From: Octopus vulgaris | Taxonomy: Eukaryota | DNA length: 64,000 nt | NCBI GenBank assembly: GCA_951406725.2 | Contig: OX597841.1 | Coordinates: 8,618,001-8,682,000, forward strand | Direction of reading: 5' to 3' | Shown here: positions 2,771 to 59,698 of the stretch, one piece after another | Layout of the letters: every line of letters begins with the position of its first letter | Position numbering within the stretch: position 1 is the stretch's first letter | Made by a program: the position numbers and the translations under genes | The notes under the pieces: generated by a model | What the model was told of the DNA's origin: nothing | The model's database searches: none | Seen by the model: only the letters and a program-made list of their open reading frames with translations

Positions 2771-3538
2771 CATTCTCTTATCCACTAGCTTGAAGCTGAC
2801 CCCCCACCCCACCCAAAAGGTTTTGTAGTTCTGCAACTTGAATCGCAACGAATAGTCGGGTTGTATGATAAAAAGCACTGAACCCATGCTGTAAATTGGT
2901 TGATGTTTGGAAGGGCATCTAACCAGAAATAGCAGACCAAAGCAGACATATATATATAATATATACATTTATATGTACGTATGTGTGTGTGTGTGTGTGT
3001 GTGTGATTGTATGTGTGTATGTGTGTGTATGTATGTTTGTGTGTCTGCGTTTGACCCTCGATTTTGCCTCCTTTAACTGAAAGAAGGGTTCATATTTTTA
3101 GTAAAATTTTTGACATATTGTGTACATGCTGATTATATTGGAATTCTTTTAGAAAAAGTTTTTCCTAGAGGGGGGGGGAGAATTTCAAAAAATTCCAATA
3201 TCGGCATTTTTTGGACGAAGACAGCTTTGATGAAATAATGAAAGAAATATGCAATCAATCTACTAATCAACTACCACACCCACCCATCCACACACATGCA
3301 TATATACTCTTTACTCTGTACTGTTTTACTTGTTTTAGGTCATTTGATTGTGGCCATGCTGGAGCACCGCCTTTAGACAGGCAAATGGACCCAGGGCTTA
3401 TTTTTTTGTAAACCTATTACTTATTCAATCACCTCATTTTCCCGAACCGCTAAGTTACGGCGTCGTAAAGACACCAGCATCGTTTGTCAAGCGATGTTGT
3501 GGGAACAAACAGAGATACACAAACATATACACACACAC

Positions 3539-3699
3539 ATGTATGTATGTATGTGTGTATGTATGTGTGTATGTATGTATGTATGTATGTATGTATGTAT
3601 GTATGTATGTATGTATGTGTGTATGTATGTATGTATGTGTGTATGTATGTATGTTTGTGTATGTTTGTATGTGTGTATGTATGTATGTATGTATGTATG

Positions 3700-3731
<32 letters not shown>

Positions 3732-5567
3732 TGTATGTATGTATGTATGTATGTATGTATGTATGTATGTATGTATGTATGTATGTATGTATGTATGTAT
3801 GTATGTATGTATGTATGTATGTATGTATGTATGTATGTGTGTATGTATGTATGTATGTATGTATGTATGTGTGTGTGTATGTATGTATGTATGTATGTAT
3901 GTATGTATGTATGTATGTATGTATGTGTGTATGTATGTATGTATGTACGTGTATGTATGTATGTATGTATGTATGTATGTATGTATGTGTGTATGTATGT
4001 ATGTATGTATGTATGTATGTATGTATGTATGTATATGTGTGTATGTGTGTATGTATGTATGTATGTATGTATGTATGTATGTATGTATGTATGTATGTAT
4101 GTATGTATGTATATGTGTGTATGTATGTATGTATGTATGTATGTATGTATGTATGTATGTATGTATGTGTGTATGTGTGTATGTATGTATGTATGTATGT
4201 ATGTATGTATGTATGTATGTATGTATGTATGTATGTATGTATGTATGTATGTATGTATGTATGTATGTATGTATGTATGTATGTATGTATGTATGTATGT
4301 ATGTATGTATGTATGTATGTATGTATGTATGTATGTATGTATGTGTGTATGTATGTATGTATGTATGTATGTATGTATGTATGTATGTATGTGTGTATGT
4401 ATGTATGTGTGTATGTATGTATGTATGTATGTATGTATGTATGTATGTATGTATGTATGTATGTATGTATGTATGTATGTGTGTATGTATGTATGTGTGT
4501 ATGTATGTATCAGTGTATGTATGTATGTATGTATGTATGTATGTATGTATCAATGTATGTATGTATGTATGTATGTATGTATGTATGTAGACATGTATGT
4601 ATGTATGTATGTATGTATGTATGTATGTATGTATGTATGTATGTATGTATGTATGTATGTATGTATGTATGTATGTATGTATGTATGTATGTATATGTGT
4701 ATGTTACGTATGTATGTTATGTATGTATGTATATATGTATGTATGTATGTATGCATGTTTGTATGTATGTATGTATGTATGTATGTATGTTTGTATGTAT
4801 GTATGTATGTGTGTATGTGTGTATGTATGTATGTATGTATGTATGTATGTATGTATGTATGTATGTATGTATGTATGTATGTATGTATGTATGTATGTAT
4901 GTATGTATGTATGTATGTATGTATGTATGTATGTATGTATGTATGTGTGTATGTATGTATGTATGTGTGTATGTATGTATGTGTGTATGTGTGTAAGTAT
5001 GTATGTATGTATGTATGTATGTATGTATGTATGTATGTATGTATGTATGTATGTATGTGTGTATGTATGTATGTATGTATGTATGTATGTATGTATGTAT
5101 GTATGTATGTATGTATGTATGTATGTGTGTATGTATGTATGTGTGTATGTATGTATGTATGTATGTATGTATGTATGTATGTATGTATGTATGTATGTAT
5201 GTATGTATGTATGTATGTATGTATGTATGTATGTATGTATGTATGTATGTATGTATGTATGTATGTATGTATGTATGTATGTATGTATGTATGTATGTAT
5301 GTGTGTATGTATGTATGTATGTATGTATGTATGTATGTATGTATGTATGTATGTATGTGTGTATGTATGTATGTATGTATGTATGTATGTGTGTATGTTT
5401 GTATGTATGTATGTATGTATGTTTGTATGTATGAATGTATGTATGTATGTATGTATGTATGTATGTATGTATGTATGTATGTGTGTATGTATGTATGTTT
5501 GTATGTATGTGTGTATGTATGTATGTATGTATGTATGTATGTATGTATGTATGTATGTATGTATGTA
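3539..5567. repeat. ~2-kb (TATG)n microsatellite
   Basis: Direct reading; sporadic TGTG variants. Confidence 0.98.
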
Positions 5568-8500
5568 GGAAGGAGGAACTCTTGAGAGTCAACGGCCATC
5601 CAATAAATTTTTTATGCTTTTTTTCTTCTTTTCTTTTTCTTTTTGTTAATGCTTAAGGCTGTAACATGGGCGGGGACATAGAAATAACCGGACTGAATAC
5701 CCGATCGCGCGGTTAAACCATTGGGAGTGAAGGACTCCTAGCCTTTGTTAGGGCATCCTTCTAGAAGGTAACTCAGGTAACTGGGATAACTGCGACATAA
5801 AACCTGCGGCTCAGTGGTTACCGATGATGTTGACCGATGATGTCTTTTCGGATTATGGCTTCTGTTGCTTAGTGTGTGGGATTGACTCAGTGCACAGTCT
5901 TTCCTCACTTTGAAAATATCTTCGTGCACAGGCATTGCACGAAAACAACATTGGATTGATTAAAGTGAGTAACTAATTCATGATTGTTGATAGTTCTGTG
6001 AGTCTCAACTGAATGGCTGGCTGTAGCCTTAAAAAGCAAAAATCAATGATGTACCAAAACAGTATAAAAATAAATGGCAGTAAGGACTCTGGAACCACAT
6101 CAGCTGAAAGAGTCTGGCCCGGCAGGGGCTCCAGAGCATCACAGTCTGAACCCGGCCGTCATCATGCTACTGTGATAGAACCAAAGAAAATAATGAATAT
6201 TTGCTGTTGGAATATACGGACACTGCTTGACCTTAAGTCCTCTGAATGTCCTGAAAGAAGGACTGCGCTTGTGGCGAAGGAGCTTCAACGCTATGATCTT
6301 GACATCGTTGCTTTATCTGAGACGAGATTACCTGGAGATGGTCATCTTACAGAATCTTGTGGAAAATATACATTCTTTTGGAAAGGGAGAGATGAAGAGT
6401 TTAGAGGAGAAGCTGGAGTGGCATTTGCTGTTAAGACTACTCTTGTGGACAAGTTGGAAGAATTCCCAATCGAAACTAACGATCGTCTTATGTCCATGAG
6501 AATTCCTTTGGCTAAAGGAAATTATATGACCTTGGTGAGTGTGTAAGCTCCAACTATGTGCTATACTGATGACGAAAAACTTTCTTTCTACCATGCTTTG
6601 AAGGGCATTATAAGAAATATCCCTCGGGCAGACAAAGTCATCGTACTGGGTGACTTTAATGCTAGAGTGGGTAGGGATTTTAACACATGGACTGTAATTG
6701 GAAAGCATGGGGTGGGGAAGTGTAATAGTAATGGCATTCTTTTGCTGCACATGTGTGAAGAGCTGAGTCTGTGTGTTACCAATACCATGTTTCAACCAAA
6801 GAATAAGCTTAGGAATAAAGAATGGCATATTCTGGATTACATCCTAGTTAGGGTGCGTGACAGACAGGATGTGCAGTGTGATCGTGTTCTTCGTGGAGCT
6901 GAGTGTTGGACTGACCACCGCCTAGTACGACGTGCAACAGTGAAATTAGTCACAAAACATAAAATCCGAGCTGCAGGGATTTCCCTGCCTAAAAGACTGG
7001 ATGTTGATCGTCTTAGGTGTAATAGTGTGAAGAGAACTTTGCGAGAGGAAATGAATGCTGTAGATATTGGGGAGGATTGGCCAACCCTTAAAAAGTCAGT
7101 TTATGATATAGGCAGGAAAGTTCTGGGATTGATACAAAGAAAGCATCAAGATTGGTTCAAAGAAAATGATGAACATATAGATGATTTATTGGCTGATAAA
7201 AGGCGTACTTTGTCACGCTATTTGTCAGCAAAGTCACAGGAAAGGGAAGTGTTGCATAGGGAACTCAAGGACGTAAAATCACGTGTGAGGCAAAGGCTCT
7301 CTCAGATGAGGGATACGTGGTGGAGTAAGAAGGCTGACGAGATACAGGCGGCATGAGATTCCAATAACACAAAGTTGCTGTATGGTCTCTTGCGAGAAGT
7401 TTATGGACCGACGTCTTCCCTGATGACACCAATTCGAAACAGGGATGGTAAAGAAGTTCTTCATGATTCACAAGGAATTCTGCGAAGGTGGCAAGAACAC
7501 TTTGATGAACTTTTGAATCAACAGTTTGTAGTTATTGAGGATGTTCTCAATCTCATCCCTGGATTGCCTGTGAAGGCAGCACTCGCAGAACCACGAAAGT
7601 TGGAAGACATTTCAATGGCCGTCTCAAGGTTGAATAATGGGAAGTCTCCGGGTATGGATGGCATACATGCGGAGTTGTTACAGCATGGTGGTGAGAAAAT
7701 TCTGCAGAAACTTCAATCTTTGTTTGGTAAGGTATGGACTAGTGAATTTGTACCTGAGGACCAGAGAAATGCAGTGATGGTGGTCCTGTATAAGTGAAAG
7801 GGCAACAGGAATGATTGTGGTAATTATAGGGGAGTATCATTGCTGTCTGCCGTAGGAAAGATTTTATGGAGGATACTTCTGGATCGTCTGCTGAAATACA
7901 TTGCAGATTGTGTTCTTCCAGAAAGTCAATCTGGCTTTTGTGTGGGACGTGGCACTGCTGGTATGATATTTTCAGCTAGACAGCTTCAGGAAAAGTGTGT
8001 GGAACAGGGTCTTGATTTGTATCAGCTTTTTGTCGATCTGACAAAAGCCTTTGATACCGTCAATAGAAAAGCATTGTGGAAAGTCCTCCAGAAATTGGGG
8101 GTCCTGAAAAGTTCCTTGCTTAGGTTAGGTCTTTTCATGAAGATATGAATGGTAGGGTGAATACTAGAGGGAAGATGTCGGAGCTCATTTCAATACAAAA
8201 TGGACTGAAACTGGGGCATATTCTGGCATTGACCCTATTTTCCATATATTTCGCGATGGTGTTCTGTATTGCATTCAGAAACTGCAGAAACGGTGTTTAC
8301 GTCCATTATCGAACCTCTGGCAACATATTTAATATCAGGGGCTTTGCTGCAAAAACAAAGATATTTACCTCTATCATAAAAAAACATTTTGTATGCTGAT
8401 GATTTTGAGCTAGTAGCACACACAGAGATTGATATGCAACACATTTTGAATGCATTCTCTGATGCTTGCACTGCCTTAGGATTGACAGTCAATCTCAAGA

Positions 8501-14046: not shown

Positions 14047-14663
14047 ACATCAATAATCATTTACAAAACAATTCTAAATTGCTTATAATCATGTTCATCA
14101 TTTCCTTGATTGTCATCATTAACAAAGTAAATAACATCATCATTGTCATCATCATCTAACATCCCTGTTATTTTCTGGCATGGGCTGGACAGGAACCAAA
14201 GACTGCACTGTGCACAGATCCGTTCCATGAATCGATCTCACTATCTCGAGAGTGTGAGCCTGACGATCTCACCACTGAGCCATGCACTTCCACAGAACGG
14301 AAGGAGAAAGAAAGAGAAAATGAAAAGAAGGAACTACAAGAGATAGATGATAGTAACGAAGTGACTCCGTTGCCCCATGGGGTAAAATGCAAAGCATTCG
14401 ATACAGAGGCTGTAATTATGTGCCAAATAAAGTTTGCGTGAGATATGGCTGTTATTTCTAGCATGTATATAGCCTGGTTGAAAACCGTAGAATCGGGAGG
14501 TGAGGTTTATTTTTTTCTTTTGAATAAATGTCATTTTACAAACAATGACTTTTTTCAGAATCACTATCTCCAATCTTTTCTACGTATTTCACAAAAAAGT
14601 AGGAAGGGTGAGTTAAATCTGCGCCATACACGCCTATACATACACACATACATACATACATAC

Positions 14664-14794
<131 letters not shown>

Positions 14795-14811
14795 TTATAT
14801 ATATTTATATA

Positions 14812-14857
<46 letters not shown>

Positions 14858-15028
14858 TGGTAAAGTAAAAAAATTCACTTTACCACACACCGAACTTTTC
14901 AGAAATAGCAGCCAAAAACATGGCTATTTCCTCAACTGCAAATAAAAGTCTCCAGACAATGCATACTCAGAAAATAACTCACATAGGTATAAGGGAAAAA
15001 CAATGAAAGATCACATCCATATACGATA

Positions 15029-15090
15029 CCCGAGGACAGTCTGTTTCTGGATTTGTGGGTAAAACGCCACTTTTCCTTCATCAGCTCAGA
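15029..15090 (-). ncRNA. Type I hammerhead ribozyme, array copy 1
   Basis: Minus strand reads TCTGAG-CTGATGA-(A)GGA..GTGG/CCAC..TCC(A)-GAAAC-AGACT-GTC-CTCGGG. Stem I is GAG/CTC extended by G-U and C-G pairs; cleavage triplet GUC. Confidence 0.88.
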
Positions 15091-15590
15091 GATTTCTTCT
15101 GATTTAGATTTGAAAATACTAAGAATCAAACATACCCGTCCGATATCTGTAACATCGGACAAACCATGCCAGACACCCAGTACTAGCGAATCCAAAAATA
15201 CGAATGAGATCTATTATTCTCCCTGTCCACCCACGTGAGTCATAGAGCATTACATTTCTACAGAGGCAAACACTGTAGTTCAAATTCTTGGAGAGAAAAG
15301 CATTATATTGTCATCAAAAAAGGGGGTAGAATTAATTAATTGTTAATAAATTCGACCAAGCAGTATTCGGTATGTAAAGACCATTTACGGTGTATTTGAA
15401 GTATTAATTTATAAAAATATGGTAAAGTAAAAAAATTCACTTTACCACACACCGAACTTTTCAGAAATAGCAGCCAAAAACATGGCTATTTCCTCAACTG
15501 CAAATAAAAGTCTCCAGACAATGCATACTCAGAAAATAACTCACATAGGTATAAGGGAAAAACAATGAAAGATCACATCCATATACGATA

Positions 15591-15652
15591 CCCGAGGACA
15601 GTCTGTTTCTGGATTTGTGGGTAAAACGCCACTTTTCCTTCATCAGCTCAGA
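15591..15652 (-). ncRNA. Type I hammerhead ribozyme, array copy 2
   Basis: Identical to copy 1, offset +562. Confidence 0.88.
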
Positions 15653-16152
15653 GATTTCTTCTGATTTAGATTTGAAAATACTAAGAATCAAACATACCCG
15701 TCCGATATCTGTAACATCGGACAAACCATGCCAGACACCCAGTACTAGCGAATCCAAAAATACGAATGAGATCTATTATTCTCCCTGTCCACCCACGTGA
15801 GTCATAGAGCATTACATTTCTACAGAGGCAAAAACTGTAGTTCAAATTCTTGGAGAGAAAAGCATTATATTGTCATCAAAAAAGGGGGTAGAATTAATTA
15901 ATTGTTAATAAATTCGACCAAGCAGTATTCGGTATGTAAAGACCATTTACGGTGTATTTGAAGTATTAATTTATAAAAATATGGTAAAGTAAAAAAATTC
16001 ACTTTACCACACACCGAACTTTTCAGAAATAGCAGCCAAAAACATGGCTATTTCCTCAACTACAAATAAAAGTCTCCAGACAATGCATACTCAGAAAATA
16101 ACTCACATAGGTATAAGGGAAAAACAATGAAAGATCACATCCATATACGATA

Positions 16153-16214
16153 CCCGAGGACAGTCTGTTTCTGGATTTGTGGGTAAAACGCCACTTTTCC
16201 TTCATCAGCTCAGA
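16153..16214 (-). ncRNA. Type I hammerhead ribozyme, array copy 3
   Basis: Identical to copy 1, offset +1124. Confidence 0.88.
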
Positions 16215-16714
16215 GATTTCTTCTGATTTAGATTTGAAAATACTAAGAATCAAACATACCCGTCCGATATCTGTAACATCGGACAAACCATGCCAGACAC
16301 CCAGTACTAGCGAATCCAAAAATACGAATGAGATCTATTATTCTCCCTGTCCACCCACGTGAGTCATAGAGCATTACATTTCTACAGAGGCAAAAACTGT
16401 AGTTCAAATTCTTGGAGAGAAAAGCATTATATTGTCATCAAAAAAGGGGGTAGAATTAATTAATTGTTAATAAATTCGACCAAGCAGTATTCGGTATGTA
16501 AAGACCATTTACGGTGTATTTGAAGTATTAATTTATAAAAATATGGTAAAGTAAAAAAATTCACTTTACCACACACCGAACTTTTCAGAAATAGCAGCCA
16601 AAAACATGGCTATTTCCTCAACTGCAAATAAAAGTCTCCAGACAATGCATACTCAGAAAATAACTCACATAGGTATAAGGGAAAAACAATGAAAGATCAC
16701 ATCCATATACGATA

Positions 16715-16772
16715 CCCGAGGACAGTCTGTTTCTGGATTTGTGGGTAAAACGCCACTTTTCCTTCATCAGCT
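16715..16772 (-). ncRNA. Type I hammerhead ribozyme, array copy 4 (5' strand of stem I clipped by the inversion)
   Basis: Core is intact. Only AG of the 5' stem I strand remains before the inversion junction. Confidence 0.7.
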
Positions 16773-16850
16773 TTATTGTTTTTCCCTTATACCTATGTGA
16801 GTTATTTTCTGAGTATGCATTGTCTGGAGACTTTTATATATATATATATT

Positions 16851-16882
<32 letters not shown>

Positions 16883-22728: not shown

Positions 22729-24802
22729 TCAAAAATGGAAGATAAAATTCCTGGAGGACTGGATCGATGCCCATCCAAACCACATCCCTTTCTTCGTCCT
22801 CACTGAAGCCCATCTTAGTGACCTCCACTTGGAAGCCGAGGTGAAAGTTAAAAATTTCAAAGCCATTCGTGCTGATCGTGCTGGCAGAAGAAAGGGTGGG
22901 ACTGCCATTTATGTTCATGATTCATTCTCAACAGAAGCTATGAACATATTTTCCAATGGATACTGCGAAGCAGTCGCTATATTCAGTCAAACCAACAACT
23001 TAACAGTAGTTGGGCTCTACAGACCACCCCAAACGCCCCTACCATGCTTCAAGGAATGCCTCAACAACATAAAGTGTTTCATTCAGCAGTGTCAACCTGA
23101 CAACCTTTTAATGACGGGAGACTTCAACCTTCCCGGGGTTGACTGGTCTACAAACAGTCTGCCGCCAGGTTCTTCTCTCTCAACCCCTGACAGGGAGGCA
23201 GTGGAATCGCTTCTTGACTTCATGGATGATTTCTTCCTGTCCCAACTGGTGCTCGAACCAACGAGATGTCACAAAAACGTCTTAGACTTAATTTTCAGCA
23301 ATCACACTGATACTATCCACAATATTGCAGTGGGGAAAACTCTACTCTCCGACCATGACATGGTTCTCTGTGATCTGAGATTTCACCGGCCAAAATGCAA
23401 AACAAATGTCATCCCTCCTGTTCATCCATTTGACACTATGGATTTCCACAATGCAAACTGGGAAGCGATCAATAATGATCTTGCACAAGTCGATTGGTCC
23501 TTCACGCACACATACACACCCACTAACATCAAAAAGTCCTGGCAGTCATTTGTAGACACCATTACGAACATATGTGCAAACCACACCCCATTAAGATCTG
23601 CAAACAAATCTAAGTGTCGAATCCCTAGAAATAGAAAATCTCTCATCAGGAAAATTAAAAGAATTAACAAAAAAAATCAACGAGCTGAAATACTGTCAAC
23701 AGCAACACACCAACCTGACTGCCATCTCGTCGCTAGAGATTAAAAAACATAAACTCCAAAACAACATGATGTCTATCATCAATAGTCAGAGAAGAGCTGA
23801 AGAGGCCTGGGCCATTGAGAAGATCAAACTCAATCACAAAGTGTTCTTTTCATTTGCAAAAATACACAGAGTCACTGGTTCTACTGTTGGCCTTCTGATT
23901 GATGAAAATGGTACTCTTCAAGACAATGCCAAAACCATGGGAGAGATATTGCAGAAACAATACTCCTCTGTTTTCAGCAACCCTGATATGACTGATCTGG
24001 GCTGTATCAGTGATGTTACTCCCCAATACACTTTATCGGACATAACCTTTGGCGCTCCTGATGTCTTAGCAGCAATAAAGGAAATGAAGCATAATTCAGC
24101 AGTAGGTCCCGATAGGTTCCCTGCTTGTGTCTTGAAGATGTGTCAACACCAACTTGCACCCACTCGAGCCAATCTGTGGTGGAACTCACTGGATGCTGGA
24201 TATATACCAGAAGACCTATCCCAGTTTGTATTCCCAGTTTTCAAAAAAGGAAATAAATCGCTTGCCGTGAATTACCGTCCAATCTCACTCACCTCTCATA
24301 TCATTATGGTATTTGAGAGAGTGCTGAGATCGCGTATGACTCACTTCCTTGAGAGTCATGATACGCTGAACTCCAACCAGCATGGATTCCGTAATGGAAG
24401 GGATTGCCTGACGCAGCTACTGCATCATTTTGATGACATTTTGAGAGCCTTGGGAGAGGGTTCCAACACTGATGTCATCTACCTTGATTTCAGCAAGGCC
24501 TTTGACAGGTTTGATCATAAGATCCTTTTGAGAAAGCTGTCCAATATTGGTGTCACTAGAAAGCTGCTACAGTGGATCAAGTGCTTCCTGTCTAACAGAA
24601 CCCAACATGTTGTAGTCGAAGGAGTCAAATCCAGCCCAGCCAAAGTCAGCAGTGGTGTCCCACAAGGCACTGTGTTGGGCCCACTTCTCTTCATCATCTA
24701 CATAAATGATATTACTGACACCATCAAACACAGTAACATCAGAACCTTCGCTGATGATTCCAAGCTCCAGAAGGTCATCAATGGCGTGGATGACCGAATA
24801 AG
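22729..24802 (+). mobile_element. CR1-like LINE ORF2 (APE + RT through FADD), truncated at both ends
   Basis: GLYRPP, MTGDFNLP, LDLIF, LSDH; frameshift in the A-run near 23670; NYRPISLTS, NQHGFR, YLDFSKAFD, GVPQGTVLGP, FADDSK. Confidence 0.92.
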
Positions 24803-25634
24803 CCGAATAAGCAATCCTAATTCGGATAAGGATACACTCTGGCTGATTATCCCATATGCAATGCAGATCAAAACGGACATAGTTAGAGCTTTGCATAATG
24901 TAATATTTAGGCATTTTGTTAAGGATATGAATAAATTTAGTCATTTAATTAATAATGGTACTGTTAGAGTAGGATATAGCATTACTCATAATATAGCCAC
25001 CATTATCTCCTCTTTTAATAACAGGAAACTGGATTACTTCTATAAAGATAGAAAGTTGAATTTAGATAATAGAAATTTGCCCCCCTTTAATAATAGGAAC
25101 AGTAACACTTCTGGAACCAACGGGAACAACCCTCTTAACAATTGTAATCCTTCTAATGTGAATGGTGGTACAGGATTGGGGACCAATCTTAGATTACCCC
25201 AATCTGTCAATAACTGCAATTGCAGAAGTAGAAATAAATGTGTGTTTGATAATCAATGCCTCAGGAAGGAGGTAGTTTATCAATGCACTGTGGTTACACA
25301 ATTTAGTAGTAGGGTGTACATCGGAGCAACCATGAATAGTATGAAACAGAGACTTAATTATCACAGATATACTTTTAGAAATATAAATAGGATGTACTCC
25401 ACGGGGTTAAGTGCATACATTTGGGAACTAAAAAGTAAGAACTTAGATTTTAGATTAAATTGGAAAATATTAACTTCGGCACCTGTGTATAATGGAAAAA
25501 ATAAAAAATGCTCTCTATGTATTAATGAAATTTTTTTCATTATTAAAGCGGGCAGGCATATTATTAACAACATAAATGAAAAAAACTTTTTTTGCATTCA
25601 TAGACTACCGTTCACCTTTTCTAGATTCAAATAG
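23766..25634 (+). CDS. Chimeric 622-aa ORF: CR1-type RT (N-terminal part) in frame with a Penelope-type linker and GIY-YIG endonuclease
   Basis: Continuous ORF in the track. RT motifs end near 24800; the C-terminal part has CNCx5C, VVY..VYIG, RLNYH and CSLC..E..CIHR. Confidence 0.75.
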   Translation: MMSIINSQRRAEEAWAIEKIKLNHKVFFSFAKIHRVTGSTVGLLIDENGTLQDNAKTMGEILQKQYSSVFSNPDMTDLGCISDVTPQYTLSDITFGAPDVLAAIKEMKHNSAVGPDRFPACVLKMCQHQLAPTRANLWWNSLDAGYIPEDLSQFVFPVFKKGNKSLAVNYRPISLTSHIIMVFERVLRSRMTHFLESHDTLNSNQHGFRNGRDCLTQLLHHFDDILRALGEGSNTDVIYLDFSKAFDRFDHKILLRKLSNIGVTRKLLQWIKCFLSNRTQHVVVEGVKSSPAKVSSGVPQGTVLGPLLFIIYINDITDTIKHSNIRTFADDSKLQKVINGVDDRISRISNPNSDKDTLWLIIPYAMQIKTDIVRALHNVIFRHFVKDMNKFSHLINNGTVRVGYSITHNIATIISSFNNRKLDYFYKDRKLNLDNRNLPPFNNRNSNTSGTNGNNPLNNCNPSNVNGGTGLGTNLRLPQSVNNCNCRSRNKCVFDNQCLRKEVVYQCTVVTQFSSRVYIGATMNSMKQRLNYHRYTFRNINRMYSTGLSAYIWELKSKNLDFRLNWKILTSAPVYNGKNKKCSLCINEIFFIIKAGRHIINNINEKNFFCIHRLPFTFSRFK

Positions 25635-44173: not shown

Positions 44174-44485
44174 TGATTGATTGATTGATTGATTGATTCT
44201 AGTTTCAGCTTATGAGCTGTGGCCATGCTGGGGCACCGCCATTTGGTGTTGCTACTTGGTTTTACTTAACGAAAGCTTTTTTGCAACTGCCATTTGGTGC
44301 ATGAGAGAGTTCGATGCAGCTGCCCTCATCTGCACCTCCTGCCGTGACGTTGGTTCATCTGGGACACCTGACAGGAAGAGATCCAGTTTCATTTTAAAGA
44401 CATGTGCATCCACCCCATGCAGGTCTCTAAGGTTCTTCGGGAGGATATTGAAGAGCTGTGGGCCTCGGAAGCCGAGGCTATCACA
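44174..44485 (-). mobile_element. CR1-like LINE copy C, 3' end only, cut off by LTR-element sequence
   Basis: Matches 38564-38875, then switches at CAC to protease-region sequence. Confidence 0.9.
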
Positions 44486-46608
44486 CTGCTTCCTCCACTC
44501 CACGCGGAGTGGAGGAAGCAGTGTTAGGGCAGTCGACGGAAGGGAAGTGCACGTGGAGTGGAGTAAGCAGTGTTAGGGCAGTCGACGGAAGAGAAGTGCA
44601 CTGCGAAGTGGTTACCGATGCGCAGATTGTGGTGCAGGGACTACAGCTGATGTTGCGAGAAATTGTGGTTGGTCACTTGGTGGACGAGATTGACGTGGTG
44701 ATGGGGATGGATGCAATCACCCGCTTTGGAGCTGTCACCGTCAACGAGGCTGGCGTCACGTTTGGGTTAGCGGGGAAACCGTGTAGGGCGAGACCACGCA
44801 CCGACGACAAGCGTGAGGTAAAGGATGCGGCGCACACCATTGAAGACCAGGATTTTCGGGCTGTCTTTGATGGCAAGAGGTGGACAGTGGAGTGGCACTG
44901 GAAGGGAGAGCCCCCGATGTTAAAGAATAAAGTGGGCTGCTATCAGCATACTCTAAAAGGAGATGCCAGAAGTGAGTTCGAGGGGGAAGTGGAGCGGTGG
45001 ATTAAGGAGGGCATACTGATCCCTTGGGAAAAAGAAGAGAGCGGAGTCCTGCCACTGATGGCGGTGATACAGCCCACAAAGCATAAGGTCAGGCCAGTGC
45101 TTGACTTCCGAGAGCTGAATCACCACGTGTTGTGTCATACAGGCGGCGAGGCCACGTATGTCTGCGGAGACACCTTGCGAGAGTGGAGGCAGACGACGGG
45201 GGCCTCCACGATTGTCGATTTGAAGTCGGCATACCTACAGGTGCATGTGGCTGAGAAATTATGGAAGTACAAGCTCGTCCACCAAGTGACCAACCACAAT
45301 TTCTCGCAACATCAGCTGTAGTCCCTGCACCACAATCTGCGCATCGGTAACCCCTTCGCAGTGCACTTCTCTTCCGTCAACTGCCCTAACACTGCTTCCT
45401 CCACTCCACGTCTCTGCCACTTCTGTGGTCATCAGAGTCGTCGTACAGCCCGCGTCCACCAGGGCTCGCGACATCTTCCCCTTCACCAGAATGTCGACCA
45501 CAGGTAACGATGATAAACGCGCCGCTACTAATCCAAAGGGATAACTACCGGTGCAGTAGTCTCCCGCGGTCCGTTTCCCCGCAGACACTCGCTGGCTACA
45601 TGCCCTGGCTCTCGACACCGGTAGCAAACCACCTCTCGCTTGGGCGACGCGCAGTCGCGGACCATGTGTGGGCCTTGGCACCGGAAACACTGTCCTTTGA
45701 ACGATCGCACGCGTTCTTTCCTCAGCCCCTCTCCGTTGCTCCTAGCTGGGCCACTTTTCGACGTTACAGTCGCTGCTACCGACGTCAACCTGCTGCACGA
45801 AACCAGTACACGTGCCCGCGATATGATATCGGCCATCGGCATCGAACGCACGTTCGGGAGCTTCTGTAGCTCGACCGACATGATGTCGGGAAAGCCGGTC
45901 ACGAACGCTAACCTAACCGTCCGTTCTAGCGACTCTCCCTCATATCCCGCCAGTTTAGCCAACCTTCTAATCTCACCGGCGAACACGTCCACCTGTTGTC
46001 CGGTCCATCTCATTCTACCCAGCCGAGCGTACGCTTCAAATATTCCTTCCGCGAAGGGCTCCATAAGTCAGATCTCCACTTTATCTTCGCTGAGTTGGTC
46101 CGTCTCCTCCATCTCTAAATATAACGCCAAGGCCGGGCCATCCAAATACAACGGCATAAAACTAGCCAGGTCAGCTATACTGTGGAGCTTCGCCACCAAC
46201 TTTACCCTCTTCAACCAAGCGACCACATCGGTGTCGCCGCAAAACGGTGTTATAGGCTCGCGTGAAACCATAGCACTCTGCATAATTTTCTACTTTTTAT
46301 TTTTTACGAAACCGAATGATTATTTGCCGAAATAGCTTGTAGTATGAAAAGAGTACAACAGAACAAGGAAAGGAATGGAAATGTAATTGGGTCTTACCTG
46401 GCCGGAGATGAACTCGGATCGCCTTTAGCCAACTCGCTCGCGTCGTGTCTTCTCGGTGTCTTCGTCGTGTCTGGCGCAACTGGTCAATGCCGCACGTGCG
46501 TTCTGTCTGTCACTTCCGCTTCCGCTCGCGCATGCGCCCTGCAAGACCTGCAAGCCCCATTTCCGCTCCCCCCCCCATTCCGTCACACTCCTTCACCATC
46601 ACACCACA
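44483..46608 (-). mobile_element. Rearranged LTR retrotransposon (family 2): 5' LTR, gag and protease on minus strand; inverted protease-RT block 44506-45279 on plus strand
   Basis: LTR 46338-46608 (TG..CA); gag with two zinc knuckles (45528-46283, one frameshift); ALVDAGC; plus-strand VRPVLDFRELN and VDLKSAYLQ. Confidence 0.88.
46326..46337 (-). promoter_or_regulatory. Primer-binding site complementary to tRNA-Phe nt 1-12
   Basis: Plus strand reads GCCGAAATAGCT, abutting the LTR end (TGTAGT at 46338). Confidence 0.75.
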
Positions 46609-46650
46609 TATACAAGCATATACATACGTGCTTACATAATACATATATGC

Positions 46651-46870
46651 ATTTCTTTACTACCCACAAGGGGCTAAACACAGAGGGGACAAACAAGGAC
46701 AGACAAACGGATTAAGTCGATTATATCGCCCCCAGTGCGTAACTGGTACTTAATTTATCGACTCCGAAAGGATGAAAGGCAAAGTCGACCTCGGTGGAAT
46801 TTAAACTCAGAACGTAACGGCAGACGAAATACGGATATGCATTTCGCCCGGCCTGCTAACGTTTCTGCCA
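46651..46870 (-). mobile_element. tRNA-derived SINE (same family as 60231 and 62893)
   Basis: ATTTCTTTACTACCCACAAGGGGCTAAAC...AAAGTCGACCTCGG.GGAATTT.AACTCAG. Confidence 0.85.
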
Positions 46871-46942
46871 CGCATATCATCTTGGTAGTCTACACACATG
46901 CACAGAAGCAGACGCAACAAAACGCGCCTGCGAGCGCGCATG

Positions 46943-48885
46943 CACTGACACACACAGCAATCAAACACACACTGACACACACAGCAATCAAACACACACT
47001 GACACACACAGCAATCAAACACACACTGACACACACAGCAATCAAACACACACTGACACACACAGCAATCAAACACACACTGACACACACAGCAATCAAA
47101 CACACACTGACACACACAGCAATCAAACACACACTGACACACACAGCAATCAAACACACACTGACACACACAGCAATCAAACACACACTGACACACACAG
47201 CAATCAAACACACACTGACACACACAGCAATCAAACACACACTGACACACACAGCAATCAAACACACACTGACACACACAGCAATCAAACACACACTGAC
47301 ACACACAGCAATCAAACACACACTGACACACACAGCAATCAAACACACACTGACACACACAGCAATCAAACACACACTGACACACACAGCAATCAAACAC
47401 ACACTGACACACACAGCAATCAAACACACACTGACACACACAGCAATCAAACACACACTGACACACACAGCAATCAAACACACACTGACACACACAGCAA
47501 TCAAACACACACTGACACACACAGCAATCAAACACACACTGACACACACAGCAATCAAACACACACTGACACACACAGCAATCAAACACACACTGACACA
47601 CACAGCAATCAAACACACACTGACACACACAGCAATCAAACACACACTGACACACACAGCAATCAAACACACACTGACACACACAGCAATCAAACACACA
47701 CTGACACACACAGCAATCAAACACACACAGCAATCAAACACACACTGACACACACAGCAATCAAACACACACTGACACACACAGCAATCAAACACACACT
47801 GACACACACAGCAATCAAACACACACTGACACACACAGCAATCAAACACACACTGACACACACAGCAATCAAACACACACTGACACACACAGCAATCAAA
47901 CACACACTGACACACACAGCAATCAAACACACACTGACACACACAGCAATCAAACACACACTGACACACACAGCAATCAAACACACACTGACACACACAG
48001 CAATCAAACACACACTGACACACACAGCAATCAAACACACACTGACACACACAGCAATCAAACACACACTGACACACACAGCAATCAAACACACACTGAC
48101 ACACACAGCAATCAAACACACACTGACACACACAGCAATCAAACACACACTGACCACACAACAATGACACACTCACACATCAGCAATCAAACACACACTG
48201 ACACACACAGCAATCAAACACACACTGACACACACAGCAATCAAACACACAAACACACACTGACACACACAGCAATCAAACACACACTGACACACACAGC
48301 AATCAAACACACACTGACACACACAGCAATCAAACACACACTGACACACACAGCAATCAAACACACACTGACACACACAGCAATCAAACACACACTGACA
48401 CACACAGCAATCAAACACACACTGACACACACAGCAATCAAACACACACTGACACACACAGCAATCAAACACACACTGACACACACAGCAATCAAACACA
48501 CACTGACACACACAGCAATCAAACACACACTGACACACACAGCAATCAAACACACACTGACACACACAGCAATCAAACACACACTGACACACACAGCAAT
48601 CAAACACACACAGCAATCAAACACACACTGACACACACAGCAATCAAACACACACTGACACACACAGCAATCAAACACACACTGACACACACAGCAATCA
48701 AACACACACTGACACACACAGCAATCAAACACACACTGACACACACAGCAATCAAACACACACTGACACACACAGCAATCAAACACACACTGACACACAC
48801 AGCAATCAAACACACACTGACTCACACACAATCAAACACACACAGCAATCAAACACACACTGACACACACAGCAATCAAACACAC
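46943..48885. repeat. 27-bp minisatellite (ACTGACACACACAGCAATCAAACACAC), ~70 copies
   Basis: Direct reading; the 9-aa periodicity HTLTHTAIK confirms the 27-bp unit. Confidence 0.97.
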
Positions 48886-49242
48886 GTTAGTAGATTGACT
48901 CAAAATGCGTGTCTGGCGGGATGATGAAGACAGAGAGATAGAGAATGACTGAAGGAGACCAATAGATACTCACATCTACACACACACAAGCACAAACACA
49001 CACGCACACATACACACTCACAACAAACATACACGTACTCACGCACACATACACACACTTACAACAGACATACACACTCACGCACACACATCAAACACAA
49101 ACACACACGCACGCATACACACTCACAAGAAACACACACACACACACATACACACTCACACACACACACGCACACACACATTTGCAACCGATGTTTTATG
49201 TGTTCTTATGATTGCAACAATAGTGGTAAGTATAAGCGGAAT

Positions 49243-49329
49243 AGTGGAGGCACATAACCTAGTGGTTAGAACAGCGGACTCGCGGTCGAGAATTCGCGGG
49301 TTCGAATCTCAGACCGGGGGATGTGTGTG
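49243..49329 (+). mobile_element. 5' head of a tRNA-derived SINE split by the LTR insertion (3' part at 57396-57625)
   Basis: A box TAACCTAGTGG, B box GTTCGAATCTC; the putative SINE body resumes after 57390; GTGTG is duplicated at 49325-49329 and 57391-57395. Confidence 0.75.
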
Positions 49330-52300
49330 TGTAGTGTGAACGGTGAAAAGAGTACAACAGAAAAAGGGAGAATGGAAATGTAATTGGGTCTTACCTCGTC
49401 GGAGATGAACTTGGATCGCTTTTAGCCAACTCGCTCGTCTGGTCCCTTCGTCCTGTCTTCCGCAACTCCTCAATGCTGCACGTGCGTTCTGCCTGTCACT
49501 TCCGCTTCCTCCGGCGCATGCGCCCTGCAAACCCTGCAAGCCCCACTTCCGCTCTCCCCCATCCGCCACACTCCTTCACCACACACCACACGCCCCCCTG
49601 ATCTACAGATCACTGAACCGGCTTCCTCACTCACTCCCGCACCTGAAACTGGTTTCATAATCAGCCAACCAGGGAGGAGGGTGCCGCTCCCTCTGTGGTC
49701 GCAGTGCGACCCTAGGACTTGTACCTGGCGTGTTGCTGCCGACCTCGTCATCCTGTCTGTTGTTTTCGTCTTGCCCACTGCTGCTGGCCCCATCCTCTGG
49801 GGCATGGACAATCCTCCGTATGTCCAAAACGTGGCGTGGTATACCATCAACCGAGATGTTATTCTTTGAATTTACGGAGGTTATTGTCCCCTTTCCCCAT
49901 TGCGATGTACACCGTGCGTTTGGGGGTTTTATCCAGACTTCCTCCCCGACCTGCACGAAGGCGTGCTCTTCCTCTGCCCCGGGTCGCTTTGATGTAGTAC
50001 ACGGATGCCTCCACTCGTACCTGAATATTGCCCTGTGTGGCACCGACTCCTCAGCCTGTCCTGATCTGGGCGGCATATTGTACCAAAACACGGCCTCGAC
50101 TGGTGAAATGTGACCCCTCTCTGCCATGGCCTTGATGGTACGATGATGCCTTTCCACCACCCCGTTTCCACTTGGCCGGTATGCCGCCCTGAAGAAGCGG
50201 TTGACCTTCCACACATCAAGCATTTCTCTCAGCACATCCGAGCGAAATGCAGTGCCGTTGTCCAGAAGCAGTTCATCCACGGGGCCTCGTTCCAGGAATA
50301 TCTCATTCAACACTTTCACAATTTCTTCTGCGGTCCCCGACTTCATCTCCCTTCACCCGCCCCGGTCTGCAGTCAATCATTGAGAGGTATGTCCCCTGCC
50401 GGTAGTGTGTTATGTCCACCGCCAGTCGTCTCCAGTCCTGGTCCACTGGAATACTTCCCGCTTCATGCACGACCGGAGCAGGGTCGATGGACTGGCACCT
50501 GTCACAACTGCTAACCACTCTCTGCACGCTCTGTCTTGTCACGTCGGAGTCAACTTTTCTGGCTAGGAACAATGTCCTGTCCACACCCATGTGATGCATG
50601 GTGTGTAGTCTCCGTAACTCCGAGTCGCTCAGACGGCATACTGCAGCTACATCCTGCTTCGCATTCCTCTGGCACCTTCAACCAGGCTCGCTTTACCCTG
50701 GTCAGGACGTCTGCCCTGTTCTTCTCAGAAGGCACAAAGATCACGCTCAGCTTCAGATTGAACTCAGTGGTTAGTTCACGCAGTATTCCTAATCGACGCT
50801 TTACCAGGATCTCTGCAGCCCCTTTGGTCCGCACCCTCCTCTCATCGGTGATGACTGCTGTCGCCCAACCAAGTACAGTGGCCGAATCAGTCCTGATTTC
50901 TATGGTGTGCAACCCCCACTTCAAGGCTAGGTTCACCCCCTTCAGCACGGCATCCAACTCCGCCACGTTGATGTGATTGCAGTCATCCATCTTCCTGAGC
51001 CAGGCCGCATCTTCCACCGTGACACCTCCCACTTCCAAGACGACCTATTGCGATGCTACTGGCGTCACACCATACGATCCCGCTCTTTGATTTGGGAACA
51101 TACCAGCTGCCCCTCACCGGGTCCTCTGCTCCTACTCTGACCAAGACTTCCTGCATCATGTCGATTGTCCTCTCCCCCACTTTATCATTCCACTTCACTC
51201 CTTCGGCTCGTCTCTTGATGAAGCTACATGCTGTCTGGAGCCAGCCTGCAATCGGGTAGTGTCCCACCAGCTTCCCACACACAGAGAACAGTTCCCGTCT
51301 ACTCATGCTGGCGCCCAGTTCAGGGACCTCATTCCCTCGCCGGAACACCAAGGCGCCGGCCTTGTCTCTCCATAGCTTGAGGCCCAGTGCAACACCTCCC
51401 TCCATTGCCACAATTGCTCGCAACGTCAGCTGTAGTCCCTGCACCACAATCTGCGCATCCGTAACCCCTTCGCAGTGCACTTCTCTTCCGTCGACTGCCC
51501 TAACACTGCTTCCTCCACTCCACGTGGAGTGGAGGAAGCAGTGTTAGGGCAGTCGACGGAAGAGAAGTGCACTGCGAAGGGGTTGGAGTGGAGGAAGCAG
51601 TGTTAGGGCAGTCGACGGAAGAGAAGTGCACTGCGAAGGGGTTACGGATGCGCAGATTGTGGTGCAGGGACTACAGCTGACGTTGCGAGCAATTGTGGTT
51701 GGTCACTTGGTGGACGAGATTGACGTGGTGATGGGGATGGATGCAATCACCCGCTTTGGAGCTGTCACCGTCAACGAGGCTGGCGTAACGTTTGGGTTAG
51801 CGGGGAAACCGTGTAGGGCGAGACCACGCACCGACGACAACCGTGAGGAAAAGGATGCGGCGCACACCATTGAAGACCAGGATTTTCGGGTTGTCTTTGA
51901 TGGCAAGAGGTGGACAGTGGAGTGGCACTGGAAGGGAGAGCCCCCGATGTTAAAGAATAAAGTGGGCTGCTAGCAGCATACTCTAAAAGGAGATGCCAGA
52001 AGTGAGTTCGAGGGGGAAGTGGAGCGGTGGATTAAGGAGGGCATACTGATCCCTTGGGAAAAAGAAGAGAGCGGAGTCCTGCCACTGATGGCGGTGATAC
52101 AGCCCACAAAGCATAAGGTCAGGCCAGTGCTTGACTTCCGAGAGCTGAATGACCACGTGTCGTGTCATACAGGCGGCGAGGCCACAGATGTCTGCGGAGA
52201 CACCTTGCGAGAGTGGAGGCAGACGACGGGGGCCTCCACGATTGTCGATTTAAAGTCGGCATACCTACAGGTGCATGTGGTTGAGAAATTATGGAAGTAC

Positions 52301-53333
52301 CAGCTCGTCAGGTATAGGGGCCGGACGTACTGTCTGACCAGGTTGGGATTCGGGCTGAATTCAGCGACGAAGATTATGGCAACAATTCTCAAGGCCATCC
52401 TGGGGAAGGTGGACAGAGTAAAAGGGCCACCAATTCATACATCGACGACATTCTGGTGGATGCCACTTCCGTAGTCATCAGGGTCGTTGTACAGCCCGTG
52501 TCCACCAGGGCTCGCGACATCTTCCCCTTCACCAGAATGTCGACCACAGGTAGCGATGATAAACGCGCCGCTACTAATCCAAAGGGACGACTACCGGCGC
52601 AGTAGTCTCCCGCGGGCCGTTTCCCTGCAGACACTCGCTGGCTACATGCCCTGGCTCTCGACACCGGTAGCAAATCACCTCAGGCTTGGGCGACGCGCAG
52701 TCACGGACCATGTGTGGACCTTGGCACCGGAAACACTGTCCTATGAACAGTCGCACACGTTCTTTCCTCAGCCCCTCTCCGCTGCTCCTAGCTGGGCCAC
52801 TTTTCGACGTTACAGTCGCTGCTACCGACGTCAACCTGCTGCACGAAACCAGTACACGTGCCCGCGACATGATATCGGCCATCGGCATCGAACGCACGTT
52901 CGGGAGCTTCTGTAGCTTGACCGACATGATGTCGGGAAAGCCGGTCACGAACGCTAACCTAATCGTCCGTTCTAGCGACTCTCCTGTGGGATGACGTCAG
53001 CAGCAGGACGTCAGCCAGCGGGGTGCGTTGACCGGAAGCTGGGGCAAGCGGAAGGGGTCAGCCGTCAAGCGCGCGGAAGGGGCGGAAGTTGACCTTTCCA
53101 ACGTGGGTTGACAAGACGTGCGAGGTGACAAGACGTGCGAGGTGACAAGACGTGCGAGGTGACAAGACGTGACAAGACGTGCGAGGAAGTCGCTAAAGGG
53201 TTTGGGGCTAGCAGCTGCTATCGTTAGTGTTCGGGTAGGGGCTGTGAGGAAGGACCAGCCATCTCGGGAGGATCTCCGTCACCACGAAGAGAAGGTAGGT
53301 GCCTCTATATTCAAATCGCACACACTCACTACA

Positions 53334-53377: not shown

Positions 53378-54142
53378 ATGTCTGCAAAAATTAGGATCGC
53401 CAGTGACGTCGTCAGACCTTTTAACGGCGAAGGCGATGTAGTGGCCTGGATTCAGAAAATCAGGCTGGTGGCGAGACTGCAGGGCATAAGCGACGTGGCG
53501 AGTCTTATGGCGCTGTATTTGGAAGGGAGTGCGTTGTCACTTTACCTAGAGATGGATGTCGAAGAACGGCTCTGCGATGAGAATATAGAGCGGCGCTTGT
53601 GTGACGCATACACGGAATGCGAGTACACAGCTTTCGCTAAGCTAGGTGCAATCAGGTGGACGGGAGGCCAAGTGGACGACTTTGCATCAGAAGCTAGAAG
53701 GCTAGCGACTCTGGCCGGGTTTGCCGGAGAAGAACTGGAGAGAGCAGCCCGACTGGCGTTCGTGAATGGGTTCCCCGACGATGTAGGGATTCACCTACAA
53801 CGACTGCCCGGGGTCAAAAAGATGCCATTGAGCGAACTTGTAACTCATGCTCGCGCGTTGACGAGACACTCTGGGCGGAAGGCGATAGCGATGGCGGTGA
53901 CGGAGGCGCGTAAAGACGGACGACGTCCCGAGAAAGAGGTACAGAAGCCCACCGTGCAACGAGAGCGGCCGTTCTCAGGACGGTGTTTTAGATGCCAGGG
54001 ACCGCACATGGCGCGGGACTGTACGCAGCCGGGGCCCGTTTGCTATCGATGCAGGCAGACAGGGCACATTGCCCGTGATTGCGGCCGGGGAAACGACCGC
54101 GGGGAAGTTGCTGCCTCTCGAACTTTCCCCTCAAACGAGTAG
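53378..54142 (+). CDS. gag: Gag (254 aa) with two zinc knuckles
   Basis: CFRCQGPHMARDC and CYRCRQTGHIARDC; ATG 45 nt after the LTR. Confidence 0.93.
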   Translation: MSAKIRIASDVVRPFNGEGDVVAWIQKIRLVARLQGISDVASLMALYLEGSALSLYLEMDVEERLCDENIERRLCDAYTECEYTAFAKLGAIRWTGGQVDDFASEARRLATLAGFAGEELERAARLAFVNGFPDDVGIHLQRLPGVKKMPLSELVTHARALTRHSGRKAIAMAVTEARKDGRRPEKEVQKPTVQRERPFSGRCFRCQGPHMARDCTQPGPVCYRCRQTGHIARDCGRGNDRGEVAASRTFPSNE

Positions 54143-58411: not shown

Positions 58412-59698
58412 AGCCATAATGAGCCAATGAGGGAAACCTCTCTATATTAGGGTAGACCTGGCAGAAAAGCAGCCAAACGTTGTATGTATGTATGTATGTA
58501 TGTATGTATGTATGTATGGGTGTGTATGCATGTATGTATGTATGTATGCATGTATGTATGTATGTATGCATGTATGTATGTATGTATGTATGTATGTATG
58601 TATGATCATATCTGTCGGGCATGTGGAAGAGAGTGTAATTCGGCAGGTGGACTTAAACGACATGCAAAGGTACATGAAGCCCAGTTTACGATATGCATGT
58701 ATGGGTATGTATGCATGTATGTATGGGTGTGTTTGCATGTATGTATGGGTGTGTATGCATGTATGTATGTAGGTATGGGTGTGTATGCATGTATGTATGT
58801 ATGTGTGTGTATATACATGTATGTATGTATCTATGTGTGTATACATATATAAATATATAATACATGCATGCACACAAACATACATACAGGAATAGACTTC
58901 GTAGTCATAAAACGAGAGAGATGAGTGAGAACCTGGCCACTGGGGGTGGTGTAACACACCATACTAATCATATCTGTCGGGCATGTGGAAGAGAGTGTAA
59001 TTCGGCAGGTGGACTTAAACGACATGCAAAGGTACATGAAGCCCAGTTACAACTACAGCCGGCTATTACCGGTAAAGGTTTTAGCTGCCAATTCTGTACA
59101 AGACATTGTAGATCTTTAGCTGGGCTAAAAAGTCACATTCGATCACAGCACCAATAACAGTTAAGCTTCGTGCAATGGCCATATTCGATAACGAGGGGGC
59201 AGCCATAATGAGCCAATGAGGGAAACCTCTCTATATTAGGGTAGACCTGGCAGAAAAAGCAGCCAAACGTCCCTCCAAATCATACTCACTGACTTATGTG
59301 TGTATATATGCATGTATGAACAAATGTGAGAAACATCTATATGTAAGACAGATCTGACAGAAATAGCAGCCAAAACTCCCTCAAATCGCCCCCTACTGTC
59401 TTTCGTATGTATGTATGTATGTATGCATGAGCCAATGTGGTGTAACACACCATACTAATAATATCTGTCGGGCATGTGGAAGAGAGTGTGATTCGGCAGG
59501 AGGACTTAAACGACATGCAAAGGTACATGAAGCCCAGTTACAACTACAGCCGGCTATTACCGGTAAAGGTTTTAGCTGCCAATTCTGTACAAGACATTGT
59601 AGATCTTTAGCTGGGCTAAAAAGTCACATTCGATCACAGCACCAATAACAGTTAAGCTTCGTGCAATGGCCATACTCGATAACGAGGGGGCAGCCATA

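Follow-up and report, generated by a model that had tools for sequence, protein, structure and literature searches.

The window (the whole 64,000-nt stretch of Octopus vulgaris DNA analyzed here) carries 3.4 head-to-tail 562-bp units inside a (TA)n microsatellite, and this array probably arose as one recent retrozyme insertion, in which a Penelope-type enzyme would have copied a 562-nt RNA ring ~3.4 times round. Classed by the sequence-level definition, the element is an animal non-LTR retrozyme and behaves as a non-autonomous Penelope-like element. Animal retrozymes have already been tied to Penelope elements (bioRxiv 10.64898/2026.07.22.740005, available part), and the same retrozyme/Penelope ring cycle has been proposed earlier (available parts of PMC4209133 and PMC7229834). 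New here are a closed-cycle contig, an editing-like signal, a length law and a variant of the hammerhead core.

Architecture of the array

Comparing the array with itself, we found 1356 of 1359 bases identical at a lag of 562, relative to ~400 at lags of 555–569, and the units differ by substitution only at 15271 and 16062. Hence, with two differences in 1.9 kb, the array is very young. On the minus strand, the order is (TA)n, an inverted 66-bp piece (monomer 28–93), monomer 511–562, three full monomers, a tail of positions 1–187 and (TA)n again. The features are as follows.

14648–14851, no strand: target microsatellite (TA)n on the element's 3' side; 14848–14850 are common to element and target
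14848–15034, minus: 3' tail, monomer positions 1–187, stopping at the family's commonest end point
15029–15090, minus: complete type I hammerhead motif, predicted cut 15035/15034
15035–15596, minus: full cut-to-cut monomer, 562 nt, private substitution at 15271
15591–15652, minus: complete type I hammerhead motif, predicted cut 15597/15596
15597–16158, minus: full cut-to-cut monomer, 562 nt, private substitution at 16062
16153–16214, minus: complete type I hammerhead motif, predicted cut 16159/16158
16159–16720, minus: full cut-to-cut monomer, 562 nt
16715–16772, minus: hammerhead motif without most of the stem I 5' arm, cut site 16721/16720
16721–16772, minus: partial unit, 5'-truncated, monomer 511–562
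16772–16837, plus: inverted arm, monomer positions 28–93, 66 bp
16835–16882, no strand: target microsatellite (TA)n on the element's 5' side

The preliminary description had recognized the near-identical head-to-tail 562-bp units, the (TA)n on both flanks, the lack of a meaningful open reading frame, and the minus-strand type I hammerhead cores (CUGAUGA..GAAA..GUC, beginning at 16770, 16208, 15646 and 15084) with the four cuts where we place them; our analysis agrees on each. Its tandem spanning 14851–16837 holds for the units, but 16772–16837 is an inverted copy. It also had three 562-nt monomers released, for which the spacing is exact, although the fourth hammerhead is incomplete. Since the inversion takes most of the stem I 5' arm of the hammerhead at 16770, cutting by single hammerheads would free only two monomers; three would be released only if neighboring hammerheads cut as pairs, the cut at 16721/16720 needing a partner hammerhead. 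We infer that reverse transcription started at the end of the 3' tail, at monomer 187, and that the inverted arm was primed separately, from the opposite strand of the target.

The array overlaps no open reading frame of ≥150 aa, a dimer translated in six frames has no stop-free run near 150 aa, and monomer GC is ~35%. A different repeat of the window shares, at 59251–59267 and 59358–59375, a 17–18-base motif with the unit (monomer ~118–135), where it forms one side of a conserved hairpin.

With units this nearly identical, a one-unit insertion might be misassembled as a tandem. This is scarcely credible here, since two of the units can be told apart by private substitutions, diagnostic variants of their own mark six other arrays, and the array spans <2 kb in an assembly of 227 contigs (2.8 Gb).

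A dispersed family with Penelope-type insertion scars

A monomer search of the assembly gave 157 matches from 40 scored of 1559 candidates, the best outside the window being 98% identical. An exact 21-mer spanning the cut occurs 178 times in the genome, and a degenerate hammerhead pattern (the wider motif) matches 664 times; both controls gave 0. Related families have units of ~555–590 bp, 68–90% alike and of the same design.

We then characterized 85 distinct loci, namely the best hits and the listed 21-mer sites, which are part of the family. (TA)n lies at the 3' end in 79/85 and at the 5' end in 68/85, and an inverted piece is present in 45/85. None of the 85 loci continues into an open reading frame, and upstream continuation into a Penelope open reading frame was found in 0/85 family loci and 0/30 wider-motif loci. 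For Penelope-like elements, the available text of PMC8557442 describes partial tandems, an inverted truncated arm, a tail and microsatellite targets, and we found all of these Penelope-insertion features here (partial tandem, inverted 5' arm, tail and (TA)n target). The insertion scars across the 85 loci support the Penelope-type origin put forward in the preliminary description.

End points were compared for 41 single-armed and 43 two-armed loci, with 1/85 in neither class. Among single-armed insertions, 29 end at 186–208 and 11 at 245–296 (40/41 in both classes together), and the end sites are AU-rich. This clustering is consistent with internal reverse-transcription starts downstream of the hammerhead. 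Both arms fall in the same site class in only 2 of the 43 two-armed insertions relative to 11.2 expected, and 0/20000 shuffles were as low. Such avoidance suggests two primers on one unit, with each site offered once.

The same element and enzyme might instead have used an uncut linear multimeric transcript of a parent array, with the hammerhead slow or dispensable, which we hold to be less likely but a real rival. The available part of PMC11167929 speaks for this template: in vitro, reverse transcription by a Penelope-type protein begins at an internal RNA site downstream of the hammerhead; the main template of the anole Penelope is unprocessed RNA, with no reads ending at the cut; and hammerhead mutants insert equally well. 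Clean junctions, (TA)n targets and inversions would be explained equally, and the hammerhead core is atypical. However, start sites would be repeated along such a template, yet the arms avoid the same site (a one-unit protein complex also explains this), and among the best hits there is no longer, near-identical parent, the nearest other locus being 98% identical with 11 differences.

Penelope-like elements with an endonuclease, as described in the accessible sections of PMC4209133, PMC8557442 and PMC11167929, are alike in partial tandems, an inverted 5'-truncated arm and (TA)n preference, in an internal start downstream of the hammerhead with two start sites defining the tail, and in the unpaired base after A9 and the palindromic stem III. 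In comparison, autonomous members carry a reverse transcriptase/GIY-YIG open reading frame and the element here has none, the main start regions are ~100 nt apart here and 30–40 in Penelope-like elements, and an extra A stands ahead of GAAA here. At its ends, the element here has microhomology (TA) to the target; the start site used by the anole enzyme had no homology (PMC11167929, available part).

Copied lengths and variants among units

Measured upstream from the last junction, copied length follows a single exponential (KS p ~0.15; 84 arms, 66 loci listed for contigs C1–C11), with a mean of 334 within the first unit and 322 beyond. Arms beyond one unit number 13 relative to 16.2 expected, and those beyond two number 3 relative to 3.0. 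A template that is endless or long would give such an exponential across unit boundaries, and the lack of a cap or step at these boundaries counts against the uncut multimer. Arrays outside the fitted sample (the window array, 1738 nt; L110, ~1840; L109, ~2700) are in slight excess over the exponential.

Units of one array differ at 0–6 positions (16 pairs) and units of different loci at a median of 20 (887 pairs), segments of <90% identity or <40 nt being left out. The window array has ≤2 differences inside, and its nearest sampled relative is 11 away (98%), as fits the earlier claim of a retrozyme-like non-coding unit inserted once into (TA)n. Counting against ring copying, the units of 4/7 arrays are hardly closer to one another than to the nearest outside locus. 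Twenty locus-private variants occupy all covering units of their array. With an uncut multimer as template, variants common to all units would imply passage through a single-monomer stage at some point. A>G or T>C changes make up 11/20 array-fixed variants relative to 25/108 single-unit variants (Fisher p 0.006). As a candidate source of variants, RNA edits written back into the genome were rejected, since A>G changes are not enriched on the sense strand among 187 private variants (23 A>G relative to 28 T>C; binomial p 0.78).

Insertion of one unit plus tail, later expanded in DNA by unequal crossing-over as in a satellite, has been suggested for retrozymes (bioRxiv 10.64898/2026.07.22.740005, available part); it also produces homogeneous arrays and would suit the slight excess of very long ones. 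We consider it improbable since the frequency of multi-unit arrays is that predicted from truncation within the unit, the array-fixed variant spectrum differs from the single-unit one, and the array is so young. Rolling reverse transcription of a circle, as claimed in the preliminary description, is favored by indirect evidence, but an uncut multimeric transcript would yield similar arrays.

A non-standard hammerhead core in a conserved fold

At E≤1, none of 13 Rfam matches is a hammerhead, and shuffled versions fold as well as the isolated motif (z 0.2–0.6), so comparison across relatives was needed. In 12 rows from related families, stems I, II and III are kept, with 90.7% of cells paired relative to 81.9% when shuffled and 25–45% when slid. 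Double changes occur in 8/17 hammerhead stem pairs, covariation scores being inflated by kinship among the 12 rows. Every family seen has a short, near-palindromic stem III, which the available text of PMC4209133 gives as the mark of hammerheads cutting as pairs.

The position after A9, where stem II begins, varies (A, C, G or U); opposite it stands an invariant A before GAAA, and the two are unpaired in 11/12 rows. The canonical stem-II base pattern gave 0 matches, and no copy with another base in place of that A was found beside this stem III. According to the same available text, G10.1–C11.1 is highly conserved in minimal hammerheads; here, this pair is absent directly before G12, with the invariant A lying between the pair and GAAA. 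In the published sense, the motif is not the minimal hammerhead of the preliminary description: the unpaired base after A9 and the palindromic 15.2–16.2 region are both present, but G10.1–C11.1 does not stand before G12.

Computed folding gave −29.3 kcal/mol for the paired hammerhead relative to −9.1 for the single active form, each above its own minimum; for the active monomer fold, the gap to the minimum is 4 kcal/mol (p 3e-4), and for the paired-hammerhead fold it is 2.6 relative to the dimer minimum. Natural hammerheads with a U–U mismatch at 10.1–11.1 are known (PMC3088659), and axolotl HHR_Amex2 shows weak cutting on its own, which improves in the dimer (PMC7229834), as the available parts of both papers report. 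The hammerhead here resembles these in its unpaired stem II base and in being natural and repeated. In contrast to them, it has an invariant A as the 3' partner of a variable 5' base (A, C, G, U), and beyond it lie 3 bp, then a 3x3 loop that is A-rich and conserved, then a distal stem. In view of the known 10.1–11.1 mismatches and the weak lone cutting in axolotl, some ribozyme activity is plausible; by analogy, self-cleavage of the family hammerhead would probably be low. In the available part of bioRxiv 10.64898/2026.07.22.740005, 8/9 frog retrozyme dimers stay uncut in vitro. Conservation of the non-standard core in at least 664 copies suggests that motif searches may undercount such ribozymes.

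The circular monomer folds at −167.4 kcal/mol relative to −120.0 ± 5.6 for 60 shuffles (z −8.5), with 65% of bases paired, and this fold is kept across families, with double changes in 24/136 consensus pairs (8 relatives). Strong self-pairing has been reported for retrozyme circles (PMC7229834, available part). An intron reading of the unit (GTGAGT at monomer 53) was rejected, since no spliced joint occurs in 8 runs and the motif lies within a conserved stem.

Metazoan non-LTR retrozymes, as far as the available parts of PMC7229834 and bioRxiv 10.64898/2026.07.22.740005 describe them, are likewise non-coding tandem units with one type I hammerhead each, GC <50%, strong self-pairing, dispersal as monomers to multimers and a genome that also has autonomous Penelope elements. 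Here, the hammerhead recurs in at least two consecutive tandem units (three complete motifs, one partial). The 562-bp unit is longer than the 150–450 bp of the former source and inside the 51–972 bp of the latter. The element here differs further in the N–A at the stem II base and in its clear Penelope insertion scars, has no matching Penelope terminal repeat among the sampled families, and is known from sequence alone.

A closed contig and editing-like clusters in probable RNA runs

We used eight sequencing runs in the form of contigs, six probably RNA and two DNA-like; RNA status was guessed, and contigs convey no transcript ends, strand or level. One run (X10, probably RNA) has a single unedited 597-base contig of depth 77 that consists of a 567-base unit and a 30-base end overlap. 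This closed cycle of a 567-base sister unit occurs in 1/6 probable RNA runs, and contigs cannot prove a covalent ring. At 17/17 listed sites, with one further site unresolved, the contig agrees with L026, a locus distinct from the window array and containing a single cut-to-cut unit. In the DNA-like runs, the family is broken into 717 and 201 records. A ring would give such a closed contig, as could a pruned linear transcript longer than one unit.

Plus-strand T>C changes, which are A>G on the hammerhead strand, are clustered in four probable RNA runs (19/28, 17/26, 10/18 and 7/11 listed differences) and are low in the two other runs (2/12, 1/17) and in the two DNA-like runs (2/9, 3/17). Among 21 T>C sites, 14 occur in none of 61–83 genomic loci and 5 in one or two. 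Read from sequence, these clusters look like A-to-I editing of family transcripts, with allelic differences as another possible source. Some plus-strand A>G clusters form an editing-like pattern on the other strand too.

Proposed cycle and its implications

In the proposed cycle, a locus with two hammerheads would be transcribed from its minus strand, the hammerheads would cut, probably paired via the near-palindromic stem III and probably slowly or assisted by protein, and a host ligase would circularize the monomer. A Penelope protein would then bind the ring and nick both (TA)n strands. One 3' end would prime at an AU-rich site near monomer 187–198 and be extended back across the ligated junction, termination being equally likely at each step (mean ~330 nt past the junction). 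The other end would prime elsewhere (usually 251–295; here 93) to give the inverted arm, and the two cDNAs would be joined.

Taken as a whole, a cephalopod retrozyme group with an active CUGANGA-N...A-GAAA hammerhead, an RNA ring from particular loci and twin priming by a Penelope enzyme on one ring is a tentative proposal, on which we lean toward doubt. If it is true, genomic copies directly record rolling-circle reverse transcription, and standard hammerhead descriptors miss the CUGANGA-N...A-GAAA variant. Ring copying by Penelope enzymes was proposed in 2014, and the lone in vitro study points to uncut RNA (PMC11167929, available part); the family offers a clean test system, since its copies are young, its start sites are defined, one locus is a candidate source and the genome encodes intact candidate enzymes. 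A literature search, with subscription papers mostly outside its reach, found nothing on such elements in cephalopods, on the hammerhead core variant (Lunse et al. 2017 may list it) or on retrozyme editing.

Candidate partner enzymes

Among the Penelope loci sampled (12 + 2 of one family and 30 + 9 GIY-YIG loci), none showed sequence kinship with the unit. Three motifs of the unit were not found in the supplement of Craig et al., which is a weak test since its lines wrap. The genome has two intact Penelope families, one with a 955-aa frame and one young, with 479- and 781-aa frames, lying in (TA)n. We label the first Hydra-like and the second Neptune-like by domain order and the available text of PMC8557442 rather than by a tree; Pfam returned nothing for the 955-aa protein. 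The search for a partner yielded no kin of the unit: the abundant Penelope family of the window has a different hammerhead of its own and no similarity to the unit, and the intact two-frame GIY-YIG family in (TA)n likewise has no similarity to it.

Penelope fragments flank 4/30 and 5/115 loci, with (TA)n between in 4/5 examined. At one locus (L227; G000:C12:66975500-66985000, minus), a 5'-truncated Hydra-like Penelope open reading frame directly adjoins a piece of a related retrozyme; a few bases are shared at the joint, and no (TA)n intervenes. This may be a template-switch chimera that would name the enzyme, as a single ambiguous lead.

The L227 joint, and the likeness of frog retrozymes to Penelope terminal repeats (bioRxiv 10.64898/2026.07.22.740005, available part), would also suit linear cut monomers copied by repeated template jumps, or a unit that is the terminal repeat of a truncated autonomous Penelope. 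Both are very improbable: the cut junctions examined neither gain nor lose letters, and the 85 family and 30 wider-motif loci have no Penelope open reading frame upstream. Copying of a ring remains the reading we prefer.

Several further observations were made on repeats of the genome. In the young two-frame family (L187–L192 and L163), a hammerhead-like 3' stretch read by eye has an apparent U3–A8 core swap. A standard minimal hammerhead lies at L108:2696, followed by a full-length 955-aa Penelope frame at 2914–5781, and L107 has a tandem period of ~5.57 kb. In the 5' flanks of L077 and L078, related copies adjoin what we take to be restriction-like-endonuclease retrotransposon coding sequences.

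Within the window, a 679-aa frame at 23595–25634 (plus) has a LINE-type reverse transcriptase (Pfam RVT_1) fused in frame to a GIY-YIG part, which is the C-terminal piece of the abundant Penelope family (22186 candidates). A 98% copy of its junction region lies at G000:C31:2195871; the frame is probably a nested insertion that was later duplicated. An uninterrupted 959-aa gypsy-type pol frame occupies 54079–56958 (plus), with a gag-like frame upstream and broken relatives at 44452–52474, and a 27-bp minisatellite of ~70 copies lies at 46943–48885.
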